In this document: positions 16,658 through 55,869 of the stretch, in pieces | Layout: every line of letters starts with the position of its first letter | How positions within the stretch are numbered: the stretch's first letter is position 1 | Assembly (NCBI GenBank): GCA_027923505.1 | Contig: BROI01000001.1 | Coordinates: forward strand, 1,612,001-1,676,000 | DNA length: 64,000 bases | DNA from: Mayamaea pseudoterrestris | Taxonomy: Eukaryota | Reading direction: 5' to 3' | Notes under the pieces: generated by a model | What the model was told of the DNA's origin: nothing | What the model saw: only the letters and a program-made list of their open reading frames with translations | Databases searched by the model: none | Program-made: the position numbers and the translations under genes

Positions 16658-16986
16658 TGACACAATATTATTGAGTTGAGTTGACCTGCGTCTTATGACA
16701 AGACGGTTAGCTACCTGTGTTTTGTATGCATTTAATCCTGTGCAGGGTTGAGTCACACTTGTGACCGAATCCTCACATACATGAGTGAAATCGCTGACGA
16801 TCGAGGCGTGAACCTCGACCGTGAACCCAGTGAGAACGAGAAGGAAGCGCACGAGTAGAGTAGCGAGTAACATGCACTATTCTAGCAATTGAGTTTGTTT
16901 GTTTGCTTTACGCTGGACGAAGAGGTTGATCGCTCCGAGTCCATTGTAGTCGCTGGAATAAAGGTTCGTCTGATATTATCGTGTCA
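16658..16986 (+). repeat. Family 1 5' LTR (copy A), 329 bp
   Basis: TG...CA ends; near-identical to LTRs at 27363, 33540, 47849 and 54322. Confidence 0.95.
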
Positions 16987-17204
16987 GATTAACAGTCTTG
17001 CTAGCTTGTCTTGACCTGAGAGAGCTGTGCGAAAGAGAGAGAGTGAAAGAATCGAGAAATTGAGAGAGAAAGAGCAGATTCCTTGCGGCGTCGTCAATCC
17101 GAATACTTGGCACGAGCGCGTAGAACAGGATCGTATAAGGCTCGACCGCATTGAGAGCGGTTGTTGTGTGAGAGAGGACTTGCGGAAGCGAGGTATTCAT
17201 TATC

Positions 17205-22680: not shown

Positions 22681-22683
22681 CTA

Positions 22684-23155
22684 TGACACGAGAATATCAG
22701 ACTAAACCCTTATTCCAGCTGGCAATGGACTCGGAGCGATCAACCTCTGCCCAGCGTAAAAGCAAAACAAACAAACTCAATTGCTGTGAATAGATGTTAT
22801 ACATTTACTGGTGGCGCTTCTTTCTCAAGTCACTGGGTTCACGGTCGAGGTTCACGCCTCGAGATCGTCAGCGATTTCACTCATGTATGTGAGGATTCGG
22901 GTCACAAGTGTTGACTCAACCCTGCACAGGATTAAATGTACAAAACACAGGTAGCTAACCGTCTTGTCATAAGACGCAGGTCAAACTCAACTCAATAATA
23001 TTGTGTCATCCCCTGATCTAGGCTTAGACAACGATCGCTTTCAGACACCCTTCCAGAAAAGAATCGGAATGATCAGGGTCGGAACGATGCGGCAAGAATG
23101 CAAGAACGTCGGCGACGTTCTGCTTGCCGAAGATGTGCTCAAAGTACAGAACATT
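22684..23155 (-). mobile_element. Error-rich inverted family 1 3' LTR plus PPT and end of pol
   Basis: TGACACGA...TTGTGTCA at 22684-23008, followed by the reverse complement of the PPT and RNase H C-terminus. Confidence 0.75.
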
Positions 23156-23162
23156 GAGCAAT

Positions 23163-27351: not shown

Positions 27352-27362
27352 ATCAAGGGGGA

Positions 27363-27691
27363 TGACACAATATTATTGAGTTGAGTTGACCTGCGTCTTA
27401 TGACAAGACGGTTAGCTACCTGTGTTTTGTATGCATTTAATCCTGTGCAGGGTTGAGTCACACTTGTGACCGAATCCTCACATACATGAGTGAAATCGCT
27501 GACGATCGAGGCGTGAACCTCGACCGTGAACCCAGTGAGAACGAGAAGGAAGCGCACGAGTAGAGTAGCGAGTAACATCCACTATTCTAGCAATTGAGTT
27601 TGTTTGTTTGCTTTACGCTGGACGAAGAGGTTGATCGCTCCGAGTCCATTGTAGTCGCTGGAATAAAGGTTCGTCTGATATTATCGTGTCA
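27363..27691 (+). repeat. Family 1 3' LTR (copy A)
   Basis: Preceded by the PPT (GATCAAGGGGGGA) and followed by the TSD TTTGA. Confidence 0.95.
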
Positions 27692-27959
27692 TTTGACAGA
27701 CATGTATTGAACGAAACAAAACAGCAAATGGTCCATTTACAACGCACAAAGGAGCAACAATTGAAGGACAAGCTACCTTCCAAGAATGAACGAATCGTTT
27801 TCTGCTCACACTAGGTGACTTACGGGATTTGGTGCAAGGGTCACTTGAGTTGTTGCACTGAAAAGGAGAAATAGGTCATGTGGTAGGTGACACACGGCTT
27901 ATTGCACACTTATTGTGTACCAATACAACATTATTGCATTGAAAGTGCTTTTTCCGCAT

Positions 27960-32100: not shown

Positions 32101-33868
32101 TCGATGCGCAAAGCCTGCTGCGACAACATGTCGAAAAGATAGTCATAATCTTCCGTCACGACGGCATCTGGGTCACCGCCTGCACTGATGATGCGTCGTC
32201 GTTCAAATGTCAAGTGCTGGTCGAATGTCGTGCACGTGGGGCCGAATTCTTCGTCGCCTTCCACTGCAGCTCGGAGCCAGTAGTACTTCTTCTTGTCGTC
32301 CGTCACTCCAGGACGGAACTCTTCAAGATTCTTCATGAGCTGTTCAATGTAGTTTAGAAACTTGTAGTGTCCTTTCGTCCAGGTCGAATCTAGGCGGATC
32401 GTCGCAAGCTTGGCTTGCAGTTCGTTCGCTTGGATGGTAGCTAACTCGCCGGAACCAAACTTGGTCGCGAGATCGCGATAGACGCTCTGAGCGTCAGACT
32501 CGTCAGCGTACTTCATTAGGAGCGACTGGTATCCAGGTACTTCGAGACAATTGCGAAACGCAGTGTACATGAAGATTTGCTGCTCCTTAAACTCTTCCTT
32601 CTCTTCTTCCGTGACTGGTACGTACTTGCTATCGAGCACGTTAGAACAGCCATGGAGCTTGGCGATTGCCTTGGTAGACGCGCTCCAACTCAACCACCCG
32701 TGGGGATGCTGGAACGTTTTGTAGTCCTTGTAATCTCGCTTCGTCTTGATGTTCGAGAATCGACCCTTGGCATCTGCTTCCTTTTCGGCCTTCTCAGCCT
32801 TCATATTCTCATTTTCGAGTTGCTTGGCAAGTAGCTCGGCTTGCGCTCTCTTAGACTCGAGGATATAGTACCCTTCTTCACGCTTTCGACCGATTTCTTG
32901 TTCGGCGAGTCTTTCTTGGAATCGCTCGAGCTTGCCTAAATCAAGCTCCGCCCACATCTTGGTGTTCGGGGCTCCGTCGTGCATGTTAAACCATTCGCAT
33001 GCATCGAGGATAAGGTTCACGTCGACTGGTGGTAGACGTGTTTCGTATCGTGCTGGGGCGGCGGCTGCTTGTCCTTCGGCCGGTCCTTCGGCCGGCTCGT
33101 CGCCCGGCTGCGCATCGTCGGGATGCGCGCCTTCAGGTTGCTCAACGCCAGCTGGGATGGCGGCTCTGTCGACCCAGTAGGGGGCTTCAAGTTGCTCCTT
33201 GGTCAATCTCAACATCTGGGTAGTGGTGGTTACATTCCAAAACAAGAACGCTTCTTGGATGTCTTGTCCGAAAACGTTCACGCAGAGCGCTTGCAAAGCC
33301 TCCGCAGTAACCGAAACCATGATAGTGAATACCTCGCTTTCCGCAAGTCCTTTCTCACACAACAACCGCTCTCAATGCAGTCGAGCCTTATACGATCCTG
33401 TTCTACGCGCTCGCGTCAAGTATTCGGATTGACGACGCCGCAAGGAATCTGCTCTTTCTCTCTCAGTTTCTCGATTCTTTCACTCTCTCTCTTTCGCACA
33501 GCTCTCTCAGGTCAAGACAAGCTAGCAAGACTGTTAATCTGACACGATAATATCAGACGAACCTTTATTCCAGCGACTACAATGGACTAGGAGCGATCAA
33601 CCTCTTCGTCCAGCGTAAAGCAAACAAACAAACTCAATTGCTAGAATAGTGCATGTTACTCGCTACTCTACTCGTGCGCTTCTTTCTCGTTCTCACTGGG
33701 TTCACGGTCGAGGTTCACGCCTCAATCGTCAGCGATTTCACTCATGTATGTGAGGATTCGGTCACAAGTGTGACTCAACCCTGCACAGGATTAAATGCAT
33801 ACAAAACACAGGTAGCTAACCGTCTTGTCATAAGACGCAGGTCAACTCAACTCAATAATATTGTGTCA
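29114..33868 (-). mobile_element. Family 1 copia copy B (reverse strand); most of pol replaced by satellite
   Basis: Clean 5' LTR 33540-33868, PBS 33526-33539, gag from ATG 33320 into protease (to about 31135), garbled pol end and 3' LTR 29114-29421. No matching TSD. Confidence 0.8.
29640..31140. repeat. Tandem satellite with alternating ~180 and ~170-bp units
   Basis: Unit starts near 30578, 30757, 30925 and 31103 (spacings 179, 168, 178). Conserved blocks GGGTGTGGCCAACACC, AAATTATGGAATCATACC, GTGTGCCATTGACATGAGGATGG. Confidence 0.85.
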
Positions 33869-35673
33869 GCCATGGTTGCCGTGTCATGGACAGGAGTTGA
33901 GGAGATGGAGAGCCGCTCATCCAAAGTTGAAAAACTGTAGCTCAAGGTTTTGCTACATGGAGTAATACAAGTCCTCCAAGATATTTGCTAAAGAGATGAT
34001 CTAAGGGCAAATGGATGTCACACATGAGGCATATACGGCAAGTGCAGCTATTTCCGGCAACCCCCCAAAGTATTTATGTGCCACCATCGTAGCAAGTTCA
34101 GAAATGGTCTCCATCATCATATATTCCAAGTATCTGCCGTGACAATGAGTTCAAATGTGTGATTGGGCACTTCAGATGATCAATCACACGTCCGAGGACA
34201 CGCATTCGAGCCAGCTTTTCCATAGCATCCATCACCAAGTACTATCTACCTCGAGGACCATGTCAAACGACCATTCCCTCCGTTTTGTCCTTCCGCTTAT
34301 TGTGGAGGGACACTTTAATGATGATCCATGGTCGAATCTGAAAGGCTGACTGGACACTGCACTTTTAGGCGGCAGCATAAGTTCTCCATAGTGGCAGTAC
34401 CTGCAGCAGCTTTAGTAGTAAACTCAATGCGCTGTTGGGTAATTTTCAATAAGAGAGCAAATTGATATCTTTCTTTGTGTTGCGGCATGCTCGTCTTGCT
34501 TTGCGGCGGCTTTAGCAGTGTTAGCAGCAAGAGTGTCGGCATTGGATTTGTACAGCACCGCGAGCATTTATACCAAGCAAGATTCGATGCAAGCAAGGAT
34601 TGGCGTATCTCGTTGGAGGCTTAATAAGCAACCAGCAATGAATAGTCAGCCGCGTCCAGCTCGTTGCAGTTCTTGGAAGTAGCGACGGGCGACGGCCATT
34701 GCGCCTATGCTGGCTTGGTGTACTTTTGCCGTCACGTCAGCCATTTAGAGAGTAGCGACTCGAAAGCTTTGGACCCCTGCGCTCGCATCCATTACATGAG
34801 AAGCTAGCTTGGCCCATCCCTGACTGCTCATAAATTTTTGCATTTATCTTTGTTGCCTTGGTAGTGCTGGCTTTCGTCTGCGACTCGCTATTCCGGTAGG
34901 GTCGTGCTCGTTGCCACACTACCGGAATCAGCTGCTCTGAGTCCTTGGCAGCTATTTGCCATCCACACTTGTTGCTGCTGAGACAGCTTTCGTGCGAGAA
35001 ACAGTATTTTCATGCTTGCAAGCGTGGTCATGATGGCGGTTGATTGTCAGCTGTCTATGCATTTGTATCGCTCGCCAAGGCAACATCGCAATCGGCTACA
35101 ATCTTCTTGAACACCTCTGAACCTATAGCGTCAACTCTTGGCTTTTCATTCCTCCAGCTAGTCAATTTTATGGCAATGTTATTGGCTCCGTGGCCATTTC
35201 TTTGGCAGAATTCCAACCACTTTGGAGGTCCTCGTTTGGGATTGGGATGGACTGACTCGCTCCTCACTTTGATGGCTTGCTATTTTAGATAAAAATCTGA
35301 CTCATATTGACAACAGTACATGGCATTGTTAATGCTTGCGTATCGTATACATTGACAGAGGCAGCAGAAGAGCAGGTATAGTAGTAGTATATTTATTTAT
35401 CGCCATGGTCAATGCAACGGATGGCTCCTCGAAGCGGGATTTTGAATGGGTCACGATGCGACAATAGCACGGTTCCCCTCCACGGTGGCGCGTCGCTCAA
35501 GGCCACACTCTCCAGTCTCCATTATTATGCCTCGCTCATCCTTGCTTGATTTCAACAAAATGGGCAGACCATTTCCGAGAGCAACATATATTTTACTCCT
35601 TCTTTTTTTCTTCCTTTGAATGAGCGAGCGCCAAGCCATGGACGATGGAGCATTTGATGCGACTCAGCCTTTC

Positions 35674-38600
35674 TGCTAAGAGGCTGGCTGGCAAATACAT
35701 GCTATAACTGATGAGCTAGTCAGATCAATGAGAAGGACCGTAAGGGTCGACTACACTTGACCTTCCCTCCAGCTCATGGCGGCAGGAGGGAGGCTCGGAT
35801 GGAAGCCCAAGATACCCATGATGGGGAATGGCGATTTCTAAGTGGGTAGCTGGCCAGGCTCGCTAGCGGGAGCGGCTGGCGCAAGATCAATCCCTTTTGG
35901 CGGTGCTCCCAGGGGACCGGTCAGGTCGGTGGAATGCACAGGAGCAGGGTGACGGAACAACACACCCTCACCACCGTCCTGATCGGGAGGAAAAGTGGTA
36001 TCAGCATCCTAGAGGAGTTCAAAATAATTGTAAGATGGAGCATTAGGCTCATGCAAGTAGACGGTTCAGATTTGCTGATGGTGGGAGGTGGGATGATGCT
36101 TGGTGAAATAATCGGCCAGGTTGAGGCAGCCTTTGCGCCACAAGATGATAAATTGACCTTGGTTGACACGATCGCAGACCCAGTAGAAACGCATGTCGCA
36201 CGCTTTTGAGCGTTTTTGCTTGACTGTGTCATTGGCAATACCAGCAGTGGTGCTATTGTCGGTTTCAACAATTTTCCTCAAGGGCCGTGCGTAGGGGGCA
36301 GGCTTCCTTGCAGTTGTGGAAGAGGGAGCCAAGCTCAGTTTCAGTGGCGCTGGAGAGGACTTCGTGCATAATTTTGCATTCAATGTGCACTGGACCATTT
36401 AGAGGTGGCGGTGACGCAGTAGCGGGTGCATCATTGGGCGGCGAGCTGAGAAAGAAATAGCCGCCGGTGCGGGAGCAAGATTTGGGCGCAGAGAGATGCG
36501 AGCCATCGGAGACAACGTAGAGAATCATGCCACTGGCGGTGAAACGCACCACAGCATTGGAATGTGTTGCTGCATAATTTAAAAACTGGGTTAAAGCTTT
36601 CATGGTGTTTTCTGTAGGCTTGGATTGTAGCGAACCAAGTTTGCCGAGGGCCATGAGCATCGTGTTATCAATGCCACGCGCGTAGCACAGGAAAGTACCA
36701 ACAATCTCTTGGACATGCGTGATGCTATCAACAGCGACGGATGCAGAATCGTCATCTGGTGGGGTGTATTGTGGGCCTTTGCCGTACACTGGTTTTGTCC
36801 AGGCAAAGGGGGAGTGCTGTGGCCGCTTCGGATGTGGGTGCTTGAAATGCAGCAGCGCACGTTGAACGTAGCCTGGCATGGAGATGTCGCAGTTGCGGTT
36901 CACCTAATCCCAGACGATGTCAATGCCACAGTATTTGCTGCTGGTCCAATCAATGCTGATAGTATATTTCGCAAATAAGACAACAATGAGGCGTTGGCCT
37001 GCAGCTTTGTCGGGAACACAGACACCAAGTCATCAACAATGAGCGTGAAAACAAGTTTACTGCGTTTGTCAATCCACAGGCCAGGGGTAAGCGTCGCTGG
37101 TGCAAAATCGTGAGGGGCAAGGTATGCGACGAGTTGATCGTAAGCAATGCAACCAGCTTGTTTGAGACCATACATGCCATGATGAATTTCGACGACAGCA
37201 TGACCATTGTGGATGAGGTCAGCGAGACGGTATTGTTCCCGGATATCATCGGGAATGGCCCAGACAGGAATGTGCATGTATTCATACTTGTCCATTGGTG
37301 TGTTGAGGTAGAAATCTTTGATATCAATAGTCAGGAAGGTAGCACCGGGTGAAGAGACAACTTTGTTGAGCAGGAGCTTGACGGTGGCCAGGTCGGCGGA
37401 CTTTGTGCTCACGTCGCCGGCGTAGTCGAGTCGGTCCCCGCCAACAGTGAAAAGCACCCGGCGCGGATTTTCCTTTTCAGAGCGCCATGCAGACACAATG
37501 CGAAGGTACGTGACTTTCTTGTGCTTAGGGACAGCAGTGTGCGGAATGAAGAACATTGTATTAGTGCCGGTTGCCATTTTGTCATGACCATGGCACAAGC
37601 ATCCGATTTCATCTTTGCAAGCGTCAATCCAAAGCGCGCCTTCACTGCTTTTAGACAATTCGTGGTAGTCAGCAATGGCGCCAGTATCGGGGTCAGCGCA
37701 TTGCCAAGCATGGCAAAATGATGCTCTGCAAGCGACTTTTGTGTGGCCAGTGCAGATGGATGGACGGTGCGGCTGGGACCGAGCTTCTTCTTACCAGCAG
37801 CTTGGCGCGCGGCTTGTTTGCGTCGGCTCTTACCAACTGGACCAGTCATGTCAGAGTATGTAGCAGGTGGTGCCAATAGCAAAACACACTTGTTTGCTTG
37901 GAGAGGTCACCACCCTCAGAGCTGGGGCAGCGTCAGTGGACTCCACCCTCAGAGGTGGCGCACTAGGAGTAGTCGGCGGAGCAGAAACTTTGGAGAGGAC
38001 TGTCATTAAGTTCTGTAATGTGGTGATGTGACTATCGGTCAGCGGTGCAAGAGGTGATCCTGGAGAGGGATGCAAAAGGGCATGCGTAATGTCAGCAATG
38101 CCAGCCAAAATTAAATCAGTGGAGGAGGCAAGGGGCATAGTCACCTTTGTTGGGAACCATTTGACAGTGTCAACAATGCGAATTTTCTTGGTTTCCCAAA
38201 TCCAGATCTGGAAACATCGATAGGATTCCAGCGCTGGGCCAACATACCAGCCATCAAGGGCATGTGGCGACCAAGTAGTGTGCTGATCAGGTGATTCAAA
38301 AGCAAGAACGCAAATGCCTGGAGGCGCAATGGGCGTGCGATTGAAATCAAACTGGCCATACAACTGGGCGTAGGCACTTAGCTTGGGGTTTATGCGGGAG
38401 CCACGCAGTAAATTGACGGTAAGTTCTGCTTGTGGGACAAGGCGATCCCATAAGTGCAAAGGAAAATCTTTGTTGGTACTGCAGAGGCCGGCAAAAAAAT
38501 GATTTGCAAATGTGCGAATACAGCGCTCAGCTGCATTGCGACGATAGTTGTGCGGCGGCACAAGCTGATAATCAACGCCTTCATCACGCATATATTCTTT

Positions 38601-41294
38601 GAGTAGCGTGGACACTTCATTGTCCAGACGTTGGAGGACCGGACGCAGACCGGCAGCACACAAGCAGGCATGTAGGACTTTGTAGGCAGCACAAATGTGT
38701 GACACATACCAAGTTTTGAACAATTCAATTACGATTGTGTTGCTATCATAGTCATATAGGACCATGAGGTATTGATTGCTCTCACTGGATGCGCAGACAA
38801 ATTGGCCTGTTTGATCAGTGTAGATTTGGCCCATAGGTTTGATAATGTTGATGTAACGATGGTGCTCGTCGCGGATGGCGCCAACGTTGGGTGGAGTGGG
38901 AAGCGTTGGTCCGGCTGTCGCGAGCTGGTGATTTTTTAGTTGAGTGAATATTTTGGCGCTGATGATCCATGTGACCTTTGTGCATGGGGATAGAGACAGG
39001 TGGATGACGCCGCAGTGTCTCGACAGTAAGGCCTGGGAAGTTGGTGATGTAGTTCTTAGATAATGCTTTTTCCAGTGTCGTGAGCGCTGGTGAAAATAAG
39101 CTGGCATGCGCAAATGCCACAAGCTCGGCTGGAGTGGCTGCGCCAATTGCCACGTTGGCAGTAGCAAGAGGAGCATGCGTTGGTAGGGAAGGTGGAGGGC
39201 CAGGAAGATCAATGTGCCATAATTTGGTGGAAGGATGCCAATGACCGGAAAGGAGGAGGCTGTCATGATGCAAAATGTGCACACTGTCCTTGTCAAATTT
39301 GATATCGCAACCAGCATCACAGAGCACTCCAATAGAGAGCAAAATGAGTAGCAAGTTTGTGGGAACAATATGACCAGGCAAGCATCAGGTGGGAGACAAT
39401 CCAAATCCAATTCGGCAATGTGAGTAGAGTGCATGATGTCGCCATTTGGATTGGAAATAGTGATGCCACATGTCGTTGGTCATTTATTTATGACGGGTGC
39501 ATCAATGCGGAAATAGTGGCTGGTGCAGCCCGTGTCAGCAATAATACTTGTTGGCAAAGGAGTCGGAACAACGTCGGCTTGAGAAGAGGCAAGTGACTCG
39601 GCAGGAACGTTGGCCTCATGCATGAGAGTAGGTGTGGTTTGTGTTAAAATAGATTTTGGATGAGGAGTGGGCTGGGCTACAATGGCAGACAATGGAGTAA
39701 CAGCAATTGTTTTGTTTACATAGTTATTGTCTGGCATTGTAGCTGGCCCTCCCCGTCACGGATTATCTGTCGACGTCGCAGCCGCAGCCGAGCCAGAGGC
39801 AGTGCTGCTTGTGCCTGCGCGAGCGCGACGTGTGCGTCTATGGTTGATGTGATCGAAGCCGCCCATGCGAGATTCCAAAGTAGCCGCATCTTGATGACCA
39901 TCCTTTTTATTGTTGCATGTGCCACTGGTGTGCGCGGCCACCTTGCATAAACCATGGCTCCAACAGTAATACCAACCGGGAAGAGATGACGTGCCACCAG
40001 CAGCAGCGTTGTTGGCAGGTGCAGCACCAGTGCGCGGAGGATTGCGTTGAGCTGCATTAGCACCATGGTAGCCAGCGGTGCGACTCGTTCCCGAGGTGAG
40101 CGTTCACGTTCAGCAGTAGCCATGAACAGAATAAACGCATTCATGGTGGCTTGCGCTGGTGGATTCGTGTTCCATTGATACACAGCATTGCTGTAAACTC
40201 TGGCCTGGTCGAAAACCTGAATCGTGGCGTTAATAGCAGCAGAATCGGGAATCGGCTCGCCACCAAGTTCAGCAAAATACTGCACATCAGCGACCAAGGT
40301 CCAGCGTGGATCCAAACCCTTGTCGACATCGAACGGTGTTGCTAGAAGCAAACGATTTTTGGCCAAGTCATTTGCTGTCATGATTGCGTATTTGGCTTCG
40401 ATCCATTGGAGCAGTTCGGCACCAGATTGATTTTCAAATCCAATTCGGCGGTCGCGGCAACGTTCGATGTAGATTGGTTCGATACACGCAATGATCCCTT
40501 GCTTGACACTTTTGAGGACTTCTTGATGAAGCGTATAACGAGCATGCGCTGCTTTCCAAGTGTTGGTAGCGTTGGCGATAGCCTGGTTGGTAGCGTTATT
40601 GGCAATGACAGGGCCATCACCAGGATTGGGTGGAACTTCATAAGCCTCAGTACCTGGAAGGGCAAGATATTTGGCGGGTGGTAGAAAGGAGCCAAGATGA
40701 CCATGGCTGCCTCTGCCAGCAGTAGTAGTGACAGTCATGAGGTTGGCATGGATCTTGGTGCAAAGGTTGGCACACAACCTGAAGTTGGGCTGGCCATTGA
40801 TGGGTGTAAAACTCTTGTGCGGCATTTGCTCGAGGAGGGAAAGGACGTTAGAGGACATGATGGTAGACTCATCAAACGAAAAGGTGGCGAGAGGGACAAC
40901 AGCTCAAATGGCGATGGCGTAGGCGTGAAGCGTGCAAGGCACTAAAACAGTTTGGTAGACTGAAGGCTTGCTGCAAGGGCAAATGGGAGAGTTTTTGACT
41001 AGCTCTGCTAAGAGGCTGGCTAGCGAATACGTGCTATAACTGATGAGCTAGTCCAATCAATGAGAAGGACCGTAAGGGTCGACTACACTTGACCTTCCCT
41101 CCAGCTCATGGTGGCAGGAGGGAGGCTCGGATGGAAGCCCAAGATACCCATGATGGGGAATGGCAATTCCTAAGCGGGTAGCTGGCCAGGCTCACTAGCG
41201 GGAGCGGCTGGCGCGGGATCAATCCCTTTTGGCGGTGCTCCCGGGGGATGGGTCAGGTCGGTGGAATGTGCAGGAGCAGGGCGACGGAACAACA
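35674..41294 (-). mobile_element. Ty1/copia LTR retrotransposon, family 2; full length but decayed
   Basis: 289-bp LTRs 41006-41294 (5') and 35674-35962 (3'), TG...CA ends. TSD CTTTC at 35669-35673 and 41295-41299. Purine-rich tract before the 3' LTR. About 18 differences between the LTRs by manual count. Confidence 0.93.
36066..40858 (-). pseudogene. Family 2 gag-pol, frameshifted
   Basis: Gag (HGHLG), protease (IADTGCTSHY), integrase (IYTDQTG, RLDNE, RRNAAERCIRTF), RT (DIKDFYL, MYGLKQAG, IVDD), RNase H (ETELGSLF, TDN, DMRFYW, NLADYFTKHH). The INT-RT-RH order indicates copia. Confidence 0.9.
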
Positions 41295-42664
41295 CTTTCG
41301 ATCCTGCATTTCGAATCCTCCCTGCTACGCTTTCTCTCAACCGCATGCTTCAGGAAACTGGTTTGGTTGACCATATCGTTGATGGATTCTATATGGGCAC
41401 TTTAGCAAAAGATGCTGCAAGACGAGTCGCAATCATCATGGAAGAGCTCTCCCAGGCCGCCGGACCGGTAAATGATCGCCTGGATGGTCTCATTCAAGAA
41501 ATGTTCCACCTTGCGCACTACTACATCACCTGTAAATCCTTTGCCTTTCCCTTCATGTCTTATGTCATTTGTCATTGGCGTTTAATTAATTGGGCCATAG
41601 GTGAGAAAATACTCACTACCACAATGGACCTCTTTATTCAAGCGGTGAATCTACATGGCCTTGAGAGTTTCGATTATTTCCTATATTTCCTGATCATAAA
41701 TCTGGTTGATGGAGCTGTTGTTTTGTTATTAATACCTGAAGTCCAAGATTTTAGCCCTTTCCAGGTTGGAAACTGGAATGCTTACTTTGCGGAACGTCTG
41801 ATTGATGCAACTGGAGGGATTGATGAGCTACTCTGCTCGGCCAGTGCAATGGACATGGAGTGAGAGGTATCACCACGGGACCTTATTTGATTTCTGCTAG
41901 TTGTTCTTATTACTCATTTGCAATGGACACCTTGTCATGACAAGCAGCGGCATGAATGACTGCGTGCGCTCATCGCTGCTTTAGTTTGGGTCAACCTGCC
42001 AAATGGAAATGATGCAGCAAACGCGGATAGTGAGAATGGGATGAGTTGGACATGATCAGTTGGATTTACGCATTTGTTGATGAAGCGAATAAAAATTGAT
42101 ACAGTAGATTGCTTGTAAAATTACACTCTACCGTAGGTGAATTCGCATTGCGCTACAGATTGCAGAAGTTAGTGTGAAGCTCAGGAGGCACGCGTACCAA
42201 TGACGTTCACGTCCAACCTTCAATATCTGATATAAGGGAACTGTCACTAAGCCTGTGCTTGTCATGCTTTTATAAAGCAGACTGGCGCTCTAAAAGGTAA
42301 TTGATAGTTGCAATGCTTCAACATTATCGATCCAGAGAATGCTTTAACAAAGCCCGTCTATCGTCGCTTTCACCAATCCGTCTACCTAGCCATTACTCTA
42401 CATGATAAGGTGCGTTTATCCCAAGTGCTTGCATGGAATCACATTCAGCTGCACCTTGCCAATGACAACTCCATGACACAGACAAAACATGTAGATGACA
42501 AAGAGGTTCAATAGATTCAATTAGGAATAGTGAAGTCAATGCTAATCAGTGCATGCAAAACATGTCGGATGCAATCTTCCGCCACCTTTCAAACAGTTCA
42601 CTGCATTCCCAAAGACAATCTCTCCGACACCATGGTCAATGTACCACTCCATCAAGGAAAGCTA

Positions 42665-45600
42665 TTAGGAGGTAAACCGGTGCCTCTGGAAGGTGAGTAA
42701 GGCTTCCTCGTCAAGGTTAAACCATGTCTCAATGGCTTGGTTTTCCTGCTCAAATGACCAGCAAATGCAACCAAGAATGCAGAGTTGCTGCAAGGGAGGT
42801 GACGTCTTGTTTTGATCTTGAATACAATATGGACGAGCCAAAAAGTCTGGAGACAAGAAATAAAAATCAGTCAGCGAAGCAACACCCCAAGCATTCATTG
42901 CTTCCTGGATCAAGCCATTACAGAGCACTCCGTTCATGAGATTTGTCATGGCGGCAGCTTGTAGCTCCACTTCTTGGTCACCAATCCCATCAGTGACCAA
43001 TGAAATGGTTGGCGCCGGCAAATCTAAATTTGAGCGATGAATGTCAGCAGTCACCGATGCAAGAGCAGTCTGCTCCCAAGGGTTGACGTTGACAGACAAA
43101 GTAGAAGGATTCTGATTGAGTGTTTCCAGCAAACCCAAGCTACCGCTAGCAGCAGCAACAGCAGCAGCAGCCACCAATGCAAAAGTAGTCTGCTCCGCTT
43201 TGCTAGGGTTGACGTTGCCCGACAAAGTGAAAGGATTCTGATTGAATGTTTCCGGCAAACCCGAGCTACCACTAACAGTTGCCGATGCAACAGCAGTCTG
43301 CTCTCCAGGTTCAATGTTGCCTGACAAAGTAAATTGGTTCTGATTGAGCATTTCCGGCAAACCCAACTGCTCCGCTTTGCTAGGGTCAACGTTGCCCAAC
43401 AAAGCAAAGGGATTCTGATTGAGCGTTTCCGGCAAACCCAACCTACCAATAGCAGTAGCCAATGCAAAAGCAATCTGCTCCACTTCGCTAGGGCCAAAGC
43501 TGCATGACAAAGGGAAAGAATTCTGATTGTGCATTTCCAACAATGGCGGAGCCTTCTGCTTGAAACAAATGCCTAGCACTCTGAGTCGTCAAAATGGTTG
43601 CGTCGAAAGCACTTCCAATTCACCATTTTCATGGTGCGCATACAAGGCCTGCTGTGTTTTGCACCAGCGTTGGAGAAACGATCCATTGACTAGCTCAAAT
43701 GCCAAGGTTACAGTGTTTTGATGCTCTTTCGGCTGCTGGTACATGTCGCTCCATGAATCATTGGCTTCGGTTTCTGCCCCCTCGTTAAAATTTCCTTGGC
43801 ACTGCCTTTTTCGGGCATGCAAGGCTTTCTGCACGTTCTCCCCTTGTGTCTGGTGCGTCTCAATGCTACGTTTGCGAACGTCCATTGCCGGCTCGAGTGC
43901 AGCCATCTCACGTTGGTGTGCAGCATTACGCACTCCATCTCCGTCATAATTTCCATGAACTGTGGCAGCCACATGGGCAACAACTGGGGCCATAAAAGGA
44001 GCAGCACTGGGAGCCAGAAGAGAAGCAGCAGCTGCAGCTCCACCAAAAGCAAAAAGTCCAGCCACAACAACTAAATCCGCGTCGTTAGCAGCAGCTCGCT
44101 GAGTCGGAGCTGCAACAGGAGCCGGAGCGGCAGCCATAGGAGCATACACTTCTAGATCCATCATGTGACATTCAAATTTGCCATCCCAAGCATTTGGAAT
44201 CTGTGTATATAAGTCATGGCAGCTATTGTTGTTGGAGTCGCTTAATTCTTCCTTTACGTCATTGTTGGAGTCATTATTGTCATCTTCCTGCCACATATCG
44301 TGGACACGCAAGGGATCGTTCCAGTTCCAAGCAATTTGAATGCCAAGACCATTCAACTTGTCCAAGACACTCTCCTCGAAAGTCTTGGCAATCTTTATGA
44401 TACGCAACCATTCAAGCCAGAGCGCCAAGGCATTCCATCCCTTGTTAAATGATACGTTGCAATTCTTGAACTAGCCACTGGAAGTGAAAACAAGATCTGC
44501 ATCAATCATTGCTTTGAATCGCTCGCGACTCAAATCGCCAACGCAAAATAGAGAGCACTGTCGTATTTGCCAACGATTCAGCTTGTGGTTCAGTCCAGTC
44601 ACTTTGTTTTCACGCTGAGCAATTGTAAGCAAACTCAGCGAATACTTCCATTTGCGTCAGCTGTGATGAGATACATGATCAGGGTCATCAATGTTGTCTT
44701 GCTTCTTGGACTTTGTCTTCTTGTTTGCTGTCGCATTTGGTGCATTGCGCGTGACTTTGTGGGTGTTCTTGCAATCGCGGTCCTCTCAAAATTTTCTGCG
44801 CCACCAACGCAGGGGAGCCAGCCGACAATGCTTTTGTGCCAGACTCCTTTCACGTGGCTCGTCTACCGAGCATACGTTACAGACAGATGATTGTAATTTG
44901 CAAATTGTAGCATATCAAGCTGCTGCACTTGTGGCAGTGAAGGGTAAAAAAACTCAATGAGCCAGTCATGGGTGATTTAAAGCAAAAATGATTGAACCTA
45001 ATTTGGATTAGTAAATGTTGCTTTCATTTGAAGGTATCCGGCATCCGATCCATTCTCTTCTGTAGTGCTCTCATTGTTGTATTCATTGTCTGATCCATCC
45101 CCATCACCACTTTTGCTTTTGTCATGGTCTTCTTGCTCACCAGTTGCGGAGCAAAACACTTCCACCAATTTCTCACGTGTAAATCCGACTTGATGATGTT
45201 TGCAAATGAATGCAGCTGCGGACTGGTCTATAAACTTTACTTCATTTGACGCCGTAGCCGCGCCAGGTGCCTTCTTCGTGCCGCTTGATGTCGTTCCCCT
45301 CGTTGCAGTCTTGTGCTTGCCTGCTTTCTTTTTGCCTGGCAATGTCGCTGCTGAAGCCGCTACATATGCCTTATGTTTCTTCTTTTGAACAGGCTGGTTG
45401 GCAGCCAAACGCTTCTGTTTCGTACTGCTTGGCGTAGGCACAATTGGCCTTGCAAGGACAAATGTGTATGGATACAGAATTGTAGCTCATCCATTCTTCA
45501 CTGCAACAGTCTCATCAAGAGTCATTGATTCTTTCAGTTCCTCTGCAGTCAGCTTGACCCAGATGTCACCCATCTTACTTCTCCCGTCAGTCATCCCTTT

Positions 45601-46236: not shown

Positions 46237-47848
46237 AGCGTTTGTGCAGTAGGAATTGATGGTGGATGGTGTTCATGGCCGCAAGTCGAAAGCGTGCGTG
46301 CGTGAGTGCGTGCGTGCTTGAAGTCGGGTCTGTACCAGTACGACATAAATGCGATGAAAAATAGCAAGCAGTCCAAGGCCTGGATGGAACTCAACACAAA
46401 AGGTGTTGCGGCGGGACCAATACTCAATGACAAAGCAAAACTAATTACACCGTTAGAACCTGCTTGACTTACTTAGTAGATCTAGTCCTTTAAATCAATG
46501 AAAACGGTCTACTATAAGCTTTAAAAGGCCAATGATTTGTGATGCGGGGTGGTGGGTCAATTTTTGAAAACTCTGCGTTAAGTCGCTGAATGAACAAAAA
46601 CCCCAGAGCGTATACCGGTACGAGTGCACAATGCCCTGCCATTACCACGTCCAATGGCCAGCAACAAAAAATACAACGACAATGATGTAGGCCATTCAGT
46701 ACACAACATGTCGAGAAACTCACACCATAATATTCCAATAATCTATAACATGCTTGCAGGATTGGATCCTAAGCTTGCTCTCTTGATTCACACCACGGCT
46801 ACTCAAGTTAGCAAAACAGCTACTCAAGTTAGCACCATGGCTGCTCAAGTTAGCCAGCAAGGTACTCAAGTTAGCCAGCAAGGTACCACCCTGGACACCA
46901 TGGCCAAGAACGTCAGCAATACTTTGCAACTTGTCATTAGCATGAATAATGGTATGGCTAAAAACCATCAGGCCACCCTCGCCAACCAGACTGCCAACCA
47001 GCAGCAGATCCTTGACACCCTCGCCAACCAGCCAATAATCCTTGTGCACCAGGAGCAGACCCTTGCCATTGTTGCCAACCAGGCTGCCAACCAGACGGAA
47101 AACCTTGCCAACCAGTGGCAGATCCTCGACATCCTTGCCAACCAGCCGAAAATCCTTGTGCACCAGCGGCAGATCCTCACCAACCAGGATGCCAACAAGC
47201 GCGCCACAACTGGGCAGCTCAACACTCTCCTGGCCAACCAGGCTGCCAACCTGACGGATAACCTTGCCAACCAGAAGTAGATCCTTGACATCCTTGCCAA
47301 CCAGCCGACAATCCTTTTGAACCAGGAGCAGACCCTTGCCATCGTTGCCCTCCAGCAGCAGATCCTCGACAACCAGCCAAAGATCCTGACCAACCAGGAG
47401 CAGATCCTCAACATCCTTGCCAACCAGCCGACGATCCTCACCAACCAGCAGCAGATCCTTGACACCAACCAGCAGCAGATCCTCAACATCCTCGCCAACC
47501 AGCCAACGATCCTCACCAACCAGCAGCAGATCCTTGACATCCTTGCCAACCAGCCGGATATCCTTGACATCCTTGCCAACCAGCCGACGATCCTTTTGCA
47601 CCAGGAGCAGACCCTTGCCATCGTTGCCCTCCAGCAGCAGATCCTCGACAACCAGCCAAAGATCCTGACCAACCAGGAGCAGATCCTCAACATCCTCGCC
47701 AACCAGCCGACGATCCTCACCAACCAGCAGCAGATCCTTGACACCAACCAGCAGCAGATCCTCAACATCCTCGCCAACCAGCCAATGATCCTCACCAACT
47801 AGCAGCAGATCCTTGACATCCTTGCCAACCAGCCGGATGTCCTCACCT

Positions 47849-50800
47849 TGACACAATATTATTGAGTTGAGTTGACCTGCGTCTTATGACAAGACGGTTA
47901 GCTACCTGTGTTTTGTATGCATTTAATCCTGTGCAGGGTTGAGTCACACTTGTGACCGAATCCTCACATACATGAGTGAAATCGCTGACGATCGAGGCGT
48001 GAACCTCGACCGTGAACCCAGTGAGAACGAGAAAGAAGCGCACGAGTAGAGTAGCGAGTAACATGCACTATTCTAGCAATTGAGTTTGTTTGTTTGCTTT
48101 ACGCTGGACGAAGAGGTTGATCGCTCCTAGTCCATTGTAGTCGCTGGAATAAAGGTTCGTCTGATATTATCGTGTCAGATTAACAGTCTTGCTAGCTTGT
48201 CTTGACCTGAGAGAGCTGTGCGAAAGAGAGAGAGTGAAAGAATCGAGAAACTGAGAGAGAAAGAGCAGATTCCTTGCGGCGTCGTCAATCCGAATACTTG
48301 ACGCGAGCGCGTAGAACAGGATCGTATAAGGCTCAACTGCATTGAGAGCGGTTGTTGTGTGAGAAAGGACTTGCGGAAAGCGAGGTATTCACTATCATGG
48401 TTTCGGTTACTGCGGAAGCTTTGCAAGCGCTCTGCGTGAACGTTTTCGGACGAGACATCCAAGAAGCGTTCTTGTTTTGGAATGTAACCACCACTACCCA
48501 GATGTTGAGATTGACCAAGGAGCAACTTGAAGCCCCCTACTGGGTCGACAGAGCCGCCATCCCAGCTGGCGTTGAGCAACCTGAAGGCGCGCAACCCGAC
48601 GATGCGCAGCCGGGCGACGAGCCGGCCGACGAACCGGCTGAAGAACAAGCAGCCGCCGCCCCAGTACGATACGAAACGCGTCTACCACCAGTCGACGTGA
48701 ACCTTATCCTCGATGCATGCGAATGGTTTAACATGCACGACGGAGCCCCGAACACCAAGAAGTGGGCGGAACTTGATTTAGGCAAGCTCGAGCGATTCCA
48801 AGAAAGACTCGCCGAACAAGAAATCGGTCGGAAGCGTGAAGAAGGGTACTATATCCTCGAGTCCAAGAGGGCGCAAGCCAAGCTACTTGCCAAGCAACTC
48901 GAAAATGAGAACTTGAAGGCTGAGAAGGCCGAAAAGGAAGCGGATGCCAAGGGTCGATTCTCGAACATCAAGACGAAGCGAGATTACAAGGACTACAAAA
49001 CGTTCCAGCATCCCCACGGGTGGTTGAGTTGGAGCGTCTACCAAGGCAATCGCCAAGCTCCATGGCTGTTCTAACGTGCTCGATAGCAAGTACGTACCAG
49101 TCACGGAAGAAGAGAAGGAAGAGTTTAAGGAGCAGCAAATCTTCATGTACACTGCGTTTCGCAATTGTCTCGAAGTACCTGGATACCAGTCGCTCCTAAT
49201 GAAGTACGCTGACGAGTCTGACGCTCAGAGCGTCTATCGCGATCTCGCGACCAAGTTTGGTTCCGGCGAGTTAGCTACCATCCAAGCGAACGAACTGCAA
49301 GCCAAGCTTGCGACGATCCGCCTAGATTCGACCTGGACGAAAGGACACTACAAGTTCCTAAACTACATCGAACAGCTCATGAAGAATCTCGAGGAGTTCC
49401 GTCCTGGAGTGACGGATGACAAGAAGAAGTACTACTGGCTCCGAGCTGCAGTGGAAGGCGACGAAGAATTCGGCCCCACGTGCACGACATTCGACCAGCA
49501 CTTGACATTTGAACGACGACGCATCATTAGTGCAGGCGGTGACCCAGACGCCATCGTAACGGAAGATTATGACTATCTTTTCGACATGTTGTCGCAGCAG
49601 GCTTTGCGCATCGACAACAAGAACGCCAAGTTGAACAAGGGCAAGAAAAACGCCGACCGCCAAGTGAACAACGCGAACACTACCGGACACGGACGTGGCA
49701 ACGGACGCGGTTCCGGCCGTGGTGGAGGACGCGGCGGTCAAGGCGGACGCGGCGCTGGACGAGACGGTGGACGTGGCACCCAAGCGGGCCGCGGTTCCGG
49801 AGGACGAGGCTCTTCCGCGCCACTCCCAGCAGCCGGTACGCAAGCGCATCGGGAACGATTCCCTGGTGATTATCTGAACTTTGAACAGTTGTTGCAGGCC
49901 CCCTGGTCGTACATGTCGTACGAACGACTCGGCCGACTTAACGAGGACGAATACGCTCAGCTCATGGCTCGACGCGAAGCCGTCCCAAGACCCGCCACAA
50001 CAAGACGCGCGAACAATGGCAACCGCGCGAATAACCAGCAGTCACAAGCGGCTGCCTCGGTGCCTGGTACAATCTTGTATCAGAATGACGCTGTCTCGAT
50101 CGCCCCGACGACAGCCACTCAAGGTGCACCGGATGACATGATTAGATCTTTCCTTGCGAACGCCGCGTCGTCTCGCACTCAAGCTGCGAATAACACCCAG
50201 CAAGAGTTTATGGGAAGCGACGGCCGTCGGTACCGCGCAATGGTATCGGTGCGCTACACTGTGAATCGAGCTCGCAGCAACGAGACCCGCCAAGGATCGC
50301 TGATTGACGGCGGTGCGAACGGTGGACTCGCTGGAAGCGATATGAGAATCTTGAGTACTACCAACCACACGTGTAACGTGACAGGTTTGAGCGACCACAC
50401 GGTTCGCGACCTCCAAGTCGGAACTGGCGTCGCATTGATTGAGACTCGGACTGGACCCATTATCGGTCAGTTCAACCAGTATGCTTTGTACGACGGTGCT
50501 GAATCCATTCATGCTCCATCGCAGCTTCGTTCGTTCGGCCATCTGATCGACGACGTCGCTCGCTCCCAGAATGGAGCACAAGCCATTGTCACCAGTTGTG
50601 GCAAGACCATCCCCTTGGCGATCCGTGACGGCTTGCCTCGTATGGATATGCGTCCGCCGACGGACGCAGAGTTGGAAATGTATCCGACGGTCATTTTCTC
50701 TGCGGACACCCTTTGGGATCCGGCGGAGCTGGATAATGAATGGAACGAAGAAGAACTTGAGTTTAATCGTCGCTTCGACGAATTGGAAGAAGAACACGGC

Positions 50801-53800
50801 TTCGTCGACGCCCGCATGGATGACTTCGGCGACGCCACCTACCGAAACAACATGAACTCAGTGGAACGTGTGGTGCAGTATGTCGATCGCAATCAGGCTG
50901 ATACGACGCGCCAAGCCAATGCACGACGCATAATGCCACAAGAACCTGACTACCAAGCGCTTCGACCCTACCTTGGCTACACGCCACTCGAACGAGTCAA
51001 GCGCACCATTAAGAATACGACACAGCTTTTCCGTGCATCGGCACACACCCCATTTCGCCAACACTTTAAGTCGCGATTCCCTGCCGCCAATGTGGTTCGT
51101 TTCCATGACGATACGGCGACAGATACCTGGTTTTCCAAGGAAGCCGCCTTTAACGACGGAATCCGCGGCCATGGCGGATGCAAGATGATGCAACTGTTCG
51201 TTGGCAAGAAGAGTCTGCTGACGAGGGGATACCCACTGAGAACCGAGAGTGACATGCCCATGGCGCTCGAAGACTTCATTCGAGACATTGGCGCTCCCGA
51301 CTTGCTCATTAGCGATAACTCGCGAGTGCAGCTCGGGAAGCAAGTTGAAACTTTGTTGCGATTCTACGCGATTCGTGACCAACAGAGCGAGCCCGGATAC
51401 CAGAACCAGAACCCTGCCGAGCGTCGCATCCAAGAAGTCAAGTCATCAGTCCAGAACATCATGAACCGTACGGGCGCACCCGCTGGAGCCTGGCTCCTAT
51501 GCGCGCTGTACGTAATCGCCTTATTCAACAATCTGGCGACCGAGTCCCTCAACTGGAAGACACCTACTGAAGCCGCCTTCAACCGAGTACCCGACATTTC
51601 GCCGTTCCTGCAGTTCAAGTTCTGGGAACGAGTCCTGTATGAAGCTGGAGCCGACGAGCCGCCGACATTTCCTCACACCAAGGAAGCAGCAGGACGCTGG
51701 GTCGGTATTGCAGAGAACAAGGGTGACATCCTCACGTACCAAGTTCGATCCGATCGGACTGGAATGGTTGTCGTCCGATCCAACGTTCGTCCCTTCTCCG
51801 AAGGACGTAACCTACGCGCTGAAGCTGAAAGCGCTCCTGAACCCGAGTCCGAACGACCACTGTTCGCGGAACCTGTCTTCGACGCGCGCCCCGCGCGTGA
51901 ACGAGTCCAAGTCGAAACTGTCGACGAGTTTGACGATGAGTATGACCTAGTCGGTCCGGTGTTTGAACACGACCTTACACCGACCCCAGCGCCTGATTCT
52001 GGGGGAACCGTGGATGAAGACGCATTCACGTTGGAAAGCGCTGCCGAGTTAGCCGGTCTGGATCCCGACGGACCCATGCCGTCCTTTACTCCGGCTGAAC
52101 TGATGGGACGCACTGTCCTTCTTGACGAGGAAGACGGCTCCACGCGACGTTACAAGGTTATCGAGCAACTGAACGATCGCGATGAAGCCAACCACAAGAT
52201 CATCAAGTTCCGATTGAGTCTCGGCGACGGCGACGTCGATGAGCTTATTACCTACAACGAACTAGCCGACCTGTGCGAGCGGCAAGATTCTTTACGACTG
52301 GGGGACGATGACAACGACGACCAGTACTACAAGTTTGATTTCATTGACGGACATGAAGGTCCACTGACACAAGCCGACGCTACGTATCGCGGCTCATCCT
52401 ACAACTTGCTCATCCAATGGGCAAATGGCGAGAAGACCTGGGAGCCACTCGCATTGATCATCAAGTCCGACCCTGTGACCGTTGCCGAGTATGGCAAGCG
52501 CAAGGGCATGCTGGACAAGGATGGATGGAAGCGCTTGAAGCGCATGGCAGGACGCACTAAATTGTTTAACCGCATGTGCAAGGCTGCAAAGAAGAACCGT
52601 GTCCAAGAAGCGCGTTTCAAGTTTGGCGTTCAAGTTCCTAATACCTGGAAGGAAGCGAACCGCCTCGACGCTGCTAATGGAAACACCCTGTGGGCTGACG
52701 CCGTCAAGACTGAGATGGAGCAGCTACACGAGTACGACACTTTCATCGACAAGGGCATCGGTGCCTTCATGGAAAGTGACTGGAAGCGCATCAACGCGCA
52801 TCTTGTTTTCGACTGCAAGAACGATCTACGACGTAAGGCCCGACTCGTCGCCGGGGGACATCTGACCGCTCCGCCCAAGGACTCCGCCTACTCCGGCGTT
52901 GTATCTATGCGAAGCATTCGAACCATAGCACTGTTAGCTGAACTGAACGACCTCAAGTTTTGGGCTGCCGATGTCGGTAACGCCTACCTCGAGGCCAAGA
53001 CCAAGGAAAAGGTCTACATTGTTGCCGGTCCCGAGTTTGGACCATTGGAAGGCCATACCTTGGTCATCTACAAGGCACTTTACGGATTGCGCACTTCTGG
53101 CGCGCGTTGGCATGAGCACTTTGCCGACACACTCCGCGACATTGGATTCTACCCAAGCTACGCGGATCCTGACGTCTGGATGAAAGACTGTGGCACTCAC
53201 TACGAGTACGTCGGCGTGTTCGTCGACGATCTGGCTATGGCCATGAAAGATCCACAAGCCTTCACGGACCTCCTCAAGGACAAGTACAAGTACAAGTTGA
53301 AGGGCGTCGGTGACATCAAGTATCACCTTGGAGCCGACTTCTATCGTGACCCCGATGGAACCCTCTGCATGAGCGCGAAGACCTACGTCGGTCGCATGCT
53401 CAAGAACTACGAGACCATGTTTGGCGAGAAGCCACGCAAGCGCAAGTCACCGCTTGACGACGGGGACCACCCCGAACTTGACCTTACCGAAGAGCTGGAT
53501 GCCCGTGGCATTCAACAGTACCAGTCTCTTATCGGTGCCCTCCAGTGGGCAGTGACCCTATGTCGACTTGACATTCATTGTGCCGTAATGACACTTGGCC
53601 GATTCCGCTGCGCCCCGCGCCGTGGACACCTGGACCGAGCCAAGCGAGTCTGCGGTTACCTAGCTGAGTACCCTGACGCGGCGATTCGTTTCCGGACGAA
53701 GATCGTCGATCACGGGGAACCTACCAAGTATGATTGGTTGCAATCGGTCTACGGCAACTCAAGCGAAGAGCTTCCGTGGAACATGCCGATCCCGAAGGGC

Positions 53801-54650
53801 AAGCCTGTGCAACTAACTACCTTTATGGACGCGAACCTGTACCATGATTACACTACTGGACGTTCCGCAATGGGAGTCCTGCATTTCCTGAACCAGACGC
53901 CCGTCGAATGGTTCTGCAAGCGTCAGAATACTGTCGAGACTGCAACGTATGGATCCGAGTTCGTCGTCGCCAAGACCGCGACGGAACAGATTATGGATTT
54001 CCGGTACTCCCTACGGATGTTGGGAGTTCCTTTGAGTGGACCAGCCTGGAAATTCGGCGACAACGAAAGTGTCAAGAAGTCGTCAACGATCCCGCACTCC
54101 ACACTTTCTAAGCGACACAATGCGCTCGCCTACCACCGAGTTCGCGAGGCCATTGCAAGCAATGTTCTGTACTTTGAGCACATCTTCGGCAAGCAGAACG
54201 TCGCCGACGTTCTTACCAAGTTCTTGCCGCATGCCACGTTCCGACCCCTGATCATTCCGATTCTTTTCTGGAAGGGTGATACGGCAAACCGATCGTTGTC
54301 ACAAGCCTAGATCAAGGGGGATGACACAATATTATTGAGTTGAGTTGACCTGCGTCTTATGACAAGACGGTTAGCTACCTGTGTTTTGTATGCATTTAAT
54401 CCTGTGCAGGGTTGAGTCACACTTGTGACCAAATCCTCACATACATGAGTGAAATCGCTGACGATCGAGGCGTGAACCTCGACCGTGAACCCAGTGAGAA
54501 CGAGAAAGAAGCGCACGAGTAGAGTAGCGAGTAACATGCACTATTCTAGCAATTGAGTTTGTTTGTTTGCTTTACGCTGGACGAAGAGGTTGATCGCTCC
54601 GAGTCCATTGTAGTCGCTGGAATAAAGGTTCGTCTGATATTATCGTGTCA
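47849..54650 (+). mobile_element. Family 1 copia copy C; full length (6802 bp) and very recent
   Basis: LTRs 47849-48177 and 54322-54650 with two differences seen. TSD CACCT at 47844-47848 and 54651-54655. PBS 48178-48191; PPT about 54309-54321. Confidence 0.97.
48397..54310 (+). CDS. Gag-Pol polyprotein (Gag, PR, INT, chromodomain-like segment, RT, RNase H) with one 2-bp deletion near 49035
   Basis: LIDGGANGG; DTW/SDN/AERRI; KARLVAGG, ADVGNAYL, LYGL, FVDD; MDAN, GSEF, GDN, NVADVLTK. GGAGCGTCTA here versus GGAGCGCGTCTA in copies A and B explains the frameshift. Confidence 0.93.
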
Positions 54651-55869
54651 CACCTGCCAGGAGCAGATCCTTGCCAACCAGCAGCAAATCATCGCCAACC
54701 AGGCTGCCAACAAGGATGCCACTACTGGGCAGCTCAACACTGTCCTTGCCAAACAGGATGCCACTACTGCGCAGCTCAACACTGTCCTTGCCAAACAGGA
54801 TGCCACTACTGCGCAGCTCAACACTGTCCTTTCCAAACAGGATGTCACTACTGAGCAGCTCAAATCTCTTCTTGCCAACCAGATGCAGATCCTTGCCAAC
54901 CAGACTGCCAACACGCGGGCCATCAACAAGATGAATCAGGCCATCAACCAGGCGAATCGGGCCATCACTAATGTGTACACAGCTATCGATACTAAATTCA
55001 ACAGTCTCACTGAGCATATCACCGACAAGATGCGTCGCATGAATACCAATTCAGTACTTCTGTGCGCACTTATCATGACTTGATGTTGCCGCCTCTTGCA
55101 AATATTGATACACGCATTGGTGAGGTTATGGTTGGGATGCAGGTCTTGCTTGGAGGCATGCAGGCAGGCCCAGCCGGTGTAGGCCAAGGCCAGGCGGGCG
55201 GCAACGAAGAAGCCGAGGTTGGCGTGGATGCTGAGGCAGGCGCCAACAAAGAAGCCGAGGTTGGTGCGGATGCTGAGGCGGGCGCCAATGAAGAAGCCGA
55301 GGTTGGTGCGGATGCTGAGGCAGGCGCCAACGAAGACGCTGAGGTGGGCGCCAACGAAGAAGCCGAGGTTGGCGCAAATGCTGAGGCGGGCGACATTGGA
55401 GCTGGTGAAGATGGCGCCGACAAAGACACCGAAGATGGCGGCAACAAAGTTGTCAAGGAGATTGACATTGCGGCAGATGCCTAAGACTTGAGTTCAAAGT
55501 TTGAACATGGAGGGACGGCGTTTGGAAGGGCCGTTTGTTGGTGGAACAATATTATTACATGTTTATTTCATGGTCATTTGAGACTGGTGCTCAAGCTTGA
55601 CGCAGCTTTGACCAATTATAGTTTTAGTTGATGACTATTTCAATATACATGTAGTTGTCGTCAAAGGTGATACATAGTAAAGTAGTTGATGCTGCGTAGC
55701 AAAGCCACGGCAAATCTTCGCAAGCCACTCGTTTCCGTGTCGCAGCGATTATAAATGAGTCATGCTGCGACGTTTTACGAGTTGGCAACTTGCAGCCATG
55801 AAGATTCCACTCGATTCTTTTGTTGGCATGTGTCTCTCCTTGCCGATTACATTACCCTACACTAGCAAT

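Follow-up and report, generated by a model that had tools for sequence, protein, structure and literature searches.

A stretch of 64,000 nucleotides (nt) from the diatom Mayamaea pseudoterrestris (assembly GCA_027923505.1, contig BROI01000001.1, positions 1,612,001 to 1,676,000 of the forward strand; hereafter the window) contains a family of Ty1/copia (Pseudoviridae) long terminal repeat (LTR) retrotransposons with recent copies, and the bases that follow its 5′ LTRs raise the question of how these elements begin reverse transcription. Three copies, E1, E2 and the truncated E3, carry one and the same motif at this position. No TGG is found within the first 20 nt past the LTR, and the site is thus not one for priming by a tRNA 3′ end. 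Judging from its complementarity to an anticodon arm, we consider it likely that the 15 nt past each 5′ LTR are a minus-strand primer-binding site for a fragment of tRNA-Asn(GUU).

A motif at the LTR border and its complementarity to tRNA-Asn(GUU)

With up to two mismatches allowed, GATTAACAGTCTTG is present exactly three times in the window, at 16987-17000 and 48178-48191 on the plus strand and at 33526-33539 on the minus strand. A comparison with shuffled sequence adds little to this count, the three sites being copies of one repeat. The last base of the corresponding 5′ LTR is 16986, 48177 or, for the minus-strand copy, 33540, and in 3/3 cases the motif starts at the very next base, right against the terminal CA; both 3′ LTRs (2/2) continue into target-site duplicates (TTTGA for E1, CACCT for E2) and not into the motif. 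The sequence-only reading of this stretch had described such an arrangement, namely a 14-nt motif that directly follows the three 5′ LTRs, shows no TGG and reads in reverse complement as an anticodon arm, and these points hold. The reverse complement splits into CAAGA / CTGTTAA / TC, where a stem strand precedes a 7-nt loop containing U33, the anticodon GTT and A37, and as an internal check the GA preceding the loop pairs with the TC following it. Only the length had to be revised: the 14 nt are real and exact but the complementarity covers 15 nt, including in each copy a fifteenth base, C (48192, 17001 and 33525), that lies opposite G26 of tRNA-Asn.

The window itself is without a tRNA gene. 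The predicted arm, CAAGACTGTTAATCTTG, is present in real tRNA-Asn(GUU) genes, in support of the anticodon-arm reading. In locus L008, GATTAACAGTCTTGC is the exact complement (15/15) of nt 26-40 of a tRNA-Asn(GUU) gene; a TTTTT run comes after this gene, as it does after eukaryotic nuclear tRNA genes transcribed by RNA polymerase III. Past G26 the complementarity ends. Metagenome and viral collections were scanned for AAGACTGTTAATCTT, a pattern found in at least 233 loci, and tRNAs were called with ARAGORN. Among the matches listed, this gave 184 tRNAs, 85 of them Asn(GTT) (the latter spread over 83 loci), and the Asn genes containing CTGTTAATC (n=84) matched the site over 15 contiguous nt (23 genes), 14 nt (7), 13 nt (53) or 11 nt (1); the search pattern already fixed 13 of the 15 nt, so these counts show that such tRNA-Asn genes exist, not how frequent they are. 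As a control, the 99 bystander non-Asn tRNAs among the same listed matches fit the site over at most 7 nt anywhere; with the match anchored at the border of the LTR, the maximum is 5 nt.

Could the 15 nt be an ordinary leader that resembles a tRNA by chance, in an element without a working primer site? The presence of the motif in three copies does not speak against this, since copies of one recent master are not independent repetitions. However, for a 15-mer to match a tRNA exactly, in the one register ending in the anticodon stem and abutting the LTR, the odds are of order 1e-6 (by hand, about 50 species of tRNA times about 60 windows divided by 4^15 comes to the order of 3e-6), the bystander tRNAs do not exceed 7 nt, and near-identical LTR pairs with intact target-site duplications attest to recent transposition. 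A chance resemblance is thus very improbable.

Proposed priming from a tRNA-Asn fragment and other possible primers

The host gene is accessible through two sequencing runs, X1 and X2, that contain the DNA of the window (0.85 and 0.84 of sampled words matched) and whose contigs were placed on L008:240-370. Each run has a 418-nt contig on L008 279-336, which corresponds to tRNA nt 7-64, with 57/58 identical positions. Read in the tRNA sense, the loose ends of this contig are GCACCA before nt 7 and, after nt 64, T, ATGGTGC, G and CACCCTTTT; GCACCA together with T7 pairs 7/7 with ATGGTGC into a perfect acceptor stem. The contig thus holds a real tRNA gene: it has an acceptor stem of its own, a discriminator G and a T-run. 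Host nt 65 is a T, a C in L008, and the simplest guess is therefore that a compensating change at nt 49 accounts for the single host difference. We are fairly confident that host nt 26-40 are identical to those of L008: a host tRNA-Asn with a match of at least 11 nt, which the sequence-only reading had called for, is there, and an exact 15/15 match is very likely, short of proof. A second tRNA contig, 86 nt long, covers L008 tRNA nt 8-48; it differs there at 5 positions and has another acceptor stem. Nothing matched on the tRNA in X6 and X7, runs of other organisms from the same study as X1.

By analogy with copia and Ty5, we propose that the site would pair with nt 26-40 of the host cytoplasmic tRNA-Asn(GUU), that is with G26, the anticodon stem's 5′ strand, the entire anticodon loop and two bases at the start of the 3′ strand. 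Because this pairing ends inside the tRNA, a free 3′-OH at nt 40 would be needed and a cut would have to separate nt 40 from nt 41; the resulting 40-nt 5′ fragment would then prime minus-strand strong-stop DNA from the last base of the LTR. The primer would also rewrite the site in every replication cycle, which would account for young copies matching perfectly. Annealing, cleavage and priming by tRNA-Asn are what we infer from these data; the 15/15 match supports the earlier proposal that the primer may be a 5′ fragment of tRNA-Asn rather than initiator methionine tRNA (iMet). The proposal offers a concrete and testable handle on the start of reverse transcription, in the form of a 40-nt fragment of tRNA-Asn whose last base is C40.

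Some features of tRNA biology bear on this scheme. G26 is commonly dimethylated, a modification that would halt copying of the primer, and a copying stop at this base fits the site length of 14-15 nt. Stress-induced tRNA halves are cut within the loop and lack nt 36-40; they are therefore not the expected primer, which weakens a link between transposition and stress cleavage; the cutting may nevertheless be regulated. The cut that releases the Ty5 primer has been ascribed to host RNase P in one review (PMC5371799).

Several points weigh against priming by tRNA-Asn. The LTR and leader differ little among the three copies, which come from one recent master; as copies of one repeat, they give the conservation of the site no independent weight. 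Transfer RNA-Asn carries N6-threonylcarbamoyladenosine at position 37 (t6A37) and often queuosine at position 34 (Q34), and these modifications, together with dimethylated G26, might hinder pairing or copying; t6A37 is likewise carried by iMet, the copia and Ty5 primer. The single host difference may sit within nt 26-40, even in the anticodon, and a better-matching tRNA may exist elsewhere in the host set. As for relatives in which the site could co-vary with a tRNA, the viral collection, when scanned with a profile, yielded 22 pattern matches, 0 of them confirmed as relatives. A separate scan with the LTR end plus the site returned 8 stretches, all without a tRNA call or copia match, and these look like chance.

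The element's own transcript is another candidate primer, as in Tf1. Transcription would start near 47890, the first 11 nt, CAAGACGGTTA, would fold onto positions 4-14 of the site and an RNase H cut would yield the primer, the likeness to tRNA-Asn being incidental. The complementarity of 47890-47900 to 48181-48191 (10/11) is borderline above chance and also counts against the tRNA; an AT-rich, TATA-like run is found about 30 nt upstream of 47890, two older relics whose centre varies keep the initial 100-150 nt of the LTR including CAAGACGGTTA, and self-priming has been predicted for TAR, a copia lineage of plants (PMC6317226). However, the pairing contains an internal A/G mismatch where Tf1 requires perfect complementarity (PMC5445492), it is offset so that the first 3 nt past the LTR are left unpaired, and it is reached by 84/2000 shuffled LTRs for a 15-nt site and by 134/2000 for a 20-nt site. 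In addition, the minimum-energy fold of a transcript from 47890 pairs just 48191-48192 with the segment, and the tRNA match is both longer (15/15) and directly adjacent to the LTR. Self-priming thus appears unlikely. A better fit to a tRNA 3′ end or to the element's own transcript, either of which the sequence-only reading had named as evidence against its proposal, was not seen: there is no TGG complementarity, and the LTR reaches 10/11 with a mismatch and a 3-nt offset.

The pairing with tRNA-Asn could also be real and serve another end, such as packaging, dimerisation or targeting by tRNA-derived small RNA, or the primer could be another host RNA. The second host tRNA contig of 86 nt is an example of an alternative primer, and a borderline extra pairing between tRNA nt 10-25 and 48195-48211 would suit a role other than priming; as an extension of the tRNA-leader pairing beyond 15 nt we rejected it as not significant, since 50/1000 shuffles reach it. 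The exact position at the LTR border and the single defined tRNA end base are requirements of a primer site and not of these other functions, and the 15/15 match is with the Asn type, a match that the five differences of the second contig could only lower. We give little credence to either variant and retain a tRNA-Asn fragment as the probable primer.

Half-tRNA primers of known elements

Priming by half a tRNA molecule defines the genus Hemivirus (PMC8515867); it is established for copia, and for Ty5 the cleavage lies in the anticodon region (PMC5371799). Drosophila copia and yeast Ty5 resemble the present family in being Ty1/copia elements whose site abuts the 5′ LTR, lacks TGG and pairs with the anticodon stem-loop, so that the primer requires cutting of the tRNA (PMC5371799, PMC8515867, bioRxiv 10.1101/2025.04.25.647736). 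Their primer is iMet and has experimental proof, whereas Asn(GUU) is predicted here from sequence. The copia and Ty5 sites are in the register nt 27-40 and, according to the sequence-only reading, begin with GGTTATG.

Primers other than iMet are also in print. FunCo1, a copia element of filamentous fungi, has the site ATTAAGAGTCT for an internal part of tRNA-Lys, in nearly the same register as here (PMC5445492). ATTAAGAGTCT and ATTAACAGTCT, the corresponding part of GATTAACAGTCTTGC, differ by a single base, the one facing the anticodon's wobble base, with Lys(CUU) there against Asn(GUU) here; the site described here is longer by one base on the LTR side and by four bases into the stem. In plants, the Bianca lineage uses 1/2tRNA-Ile and the Osser, Bryco and Gymco-II lineages 1/2tRNA-Met, half-tRNA sites that characterise their lineage as in the present family but for different tRNAs (PMC6317226). 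This survey of 80 plant species reports half-tRNA sites for Met or Ile only; tRNA-Asn (2% of elements) appears there only among the most-matched types of sites that are mostly complementary to tRNA 3′ ends (PMC6317226). Copia elements of Candida have internal sites for tRNA-Arg(UCU) and iMet (PMC4139406), the former being again a non-iMet internal site, with another tRNA and another host. Tf1 of S. pombe and plant TAR elements share with the present family the absence of a tRNA 3′-end site and an LTR part able to pair with the site. The perfect complementarity between transcript start and site of the Tf1 type is, however, not found here, where the LTR pairs imperfectly (10/11 at best) and with an offset, less well than the tRNA.

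The novelty is therefore smaller than the sequence-only reading had assumed, half-tRNA sites for Ile, Lys and Arg having been published (PMC6317226, PMC5445492, PMC4139406): Asn is a new primer species, not a new mechanism. The asparagine tRNA would join the short list of internal-fragment primers for copia-type elements, and a diatom copia family would, as far as our literature search shows, be assigned a primer for the first time. We found no published description of a diatom copia primer site or of an Asn half-tRNA site, although subscription journals and supplements may contain one; a literature search by sequence string gave nothing relevant. A search by term within the paper on the CoDi elements (the diatom copia lineages of Maumus et al. 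2009), in which diatom copia elements are described as a stress-activated group (PMC2806351), found no text on primer sites or tRNA. A small-RNA study of P. tricornutum reports, in the text available, internal D-loop/anticodon fragments for 9 tRNAs and one half, of tRNA-Glu.

When the proposed Asn primer is included, all five half-tRNA primers read codons starting with A (iMet CAU, Ile IAU, Lys CUU, Arg UCU, Asn GUU) and have in common the loop C32-U33-N-N-U36-A37-A38. Transfer RNAs for such codons carry t6A37. It is tempting to speculate, and we do so with reserve, that half-tRNA priming in Ty1/copia elements is confined to this set of tRNAs. If so, the cutting or the annealing step may recognise the CU..UAA loop type, and elements could switch primers by single-base steps in the site, as illustrated by the FunCo1 Lys site and the present Asn site, which differ only opposite the wobble base; the diatom copia elements would be a branch settled on tRNA-Asn. 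Should it be upheld, the pattern would suggest a common rule of recognition or cleavage, so far unexplained.

The copia family and other repeats in the window

The LTR was defined from repeat finding, an alignment of five copies and exact slicing. It measures 329 bp and has the ends TGACACAA...TCGTGTCA (TGACAC...GTGTCA). E2 spans 47849-54650 and E1 16658-27691, the latter with a 5-bp target-site duplication, TTTGA; a polypurine tract, AAGGGGGA, lies ahead of both 3′ LTRs (Table 1). The LTR pairs are identical at 328/329 positions in E1 and 327/329 in E2, and together with the intact target-site duplications this argues for recent successful transposition, in agreement with the earlier description of a recently active family.

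Its assignment to copia, also made in the sequence-only reading, is borne out by the protein evidence. Pfam detects PF07727 (RVT_2, E 4.6e-25) at residues 1211-1423 of the 1721-residue open reading frame (ORF) of E2, placing the reverse transcriptase about 1200 residues into the pol ORF. The integrase family rve was not detected by Pfam in the window protein itself; it is found (PF00665) together with PF07727 in 3 of the best 120 relatives. These come from a protein search that scored 7996 candidates and gave 1622 relatives at E <= 0.001. The best 120 of the 1622 are 46-60% identical, mostly lie on 6-7 kb contigs and include one MMETSP transcript; the diatom Mayamaea pseudoterrestris is the source of the best named relative among them (53% identity). 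Alignment of 23 relatives gave a consensus with blocks which we take to be protease-like, integrase-like (D..D..E), YVDD and RNase H-like, in copia order. Nine published primers for the diatom elements Blackbeard, Surcouf and PtC34 (PMC2806351) gave no match in the window, with at least 5 mismatches each.

Table 1. Coordinates of the copia family features in the window (LTR stands for long terminal repeat and ORF for open reading frame)
Feature	Position	Strand	Remark
E2 target-site duplication CACCT, left	47844..47848	+	slicing
E2 5′ LTR, 329 bp	47849..48177	+	327/329 identical to E2 3′ LTR
LTR segment CAAGACGGTTA	47890..47900	+	pairs 10/11 with site positions 4-14
E2 putative primer-binding site, 15 nt, GATTAACAGTCTTG + C at 48192	48178..48192	+	once in E2
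E2 first ORF, 225 amino acids, presumed gag start	48397..49074	+	
E2 pol ORF, 1721 amino acids	49145..54310	+	RVT_2 at residues 1211-1423
E2 polypurine tract AAGGGGGA	54314..54321	+	abuts 3′ LTR
E2 3′ LTR	54322..54650	+	LTR alignment and slicing
E2 target-site duplication CACCT, right	54651..54655	+	slicing
E1 5′ LTR	16658..16986	+	LTR alignment and slicing
E1 putative primer-binding site, identical 15 nt	16987..17001	+	
E1 3′ LTR	27363..27691	+	LTR alignment and slicing
E3 putative primer-binding site, identical 15 nt	33525..33539	-	
E3 (truncated) 5′ LTR	33540..33868	-	internal part down to about 31131

The first ORF of E2 has no Pfam family match. Compared with E1, E2 lacks 2 nt near 49034 (E1 17842-17844), which puts this ORF out of frame with pol, whereas the equivalent region of E1 reads through as a single ORF of 1177 residues. 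Judging from this gap, E2 is probably non-autonomous despite its near-identical LTRs. E1 is itself a composite, with about 11 kb between matching LTRs and an intact TTTGA duplication: after E2 coordinates 1-5501 comes an inverted 3′-LTR fragment that belongs to an older relative (22684-23156, 88% identity), and E2 coordinates 2222-6802 are next, so that about 3.3 kb of the internal region is present in duplicate. Between the primer site and the first ATG, the leader is purine-rich at 48207-48270 (GAGAGAG and GAAAGA runs), and this stretch is identical in the three copies except for one base.

Two older LTR relics, at 22684-23008 and 29114-29421 (minus strand), are 88% and 83% identical to the LTR. 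In both, the LTR is almost unchanged over its initial 100-150 nt and its final 100 nt, and the centre is rearranged. A conserved LTR start is unusual for U3 promoter sequence, and the family may have a very short U3.

A second LTR element is located at 35672-41295 on the minus strand, with LTRs of about 292 bp (TGTTG...TTAGCA) that are 94% alike and a target-site duplication GAAAG. Its ORFs are degenerate, without a Pfam or copia protein match. We considered it as another user of a half-tRNA and rejected it: the sequence after its LTR, GAGCTAGTCAAAAAC, is without TGG and fits no anticodon-loop register.

E2 is embedded in an array of repeats of about 51 bp (units like CCAACCAGCAGCAGATCCT), which covers 46963-47865, resumes after the 3′ LTR at 54651-54763 and is overlapped by ORFs on both strands. 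A FYVE/Ysc84 gene of the host is also found in the window, its nearest relatives being oomycete clusters; this marks the host as a stramenopile, and the relatives of the copia element add that it is probably a diatom. Further tandem-repeat arrays, at 27917-29113 (units of about 144-430 bp) and 43064-43480 (about 126-177 bp), adjoin transposon remnants.

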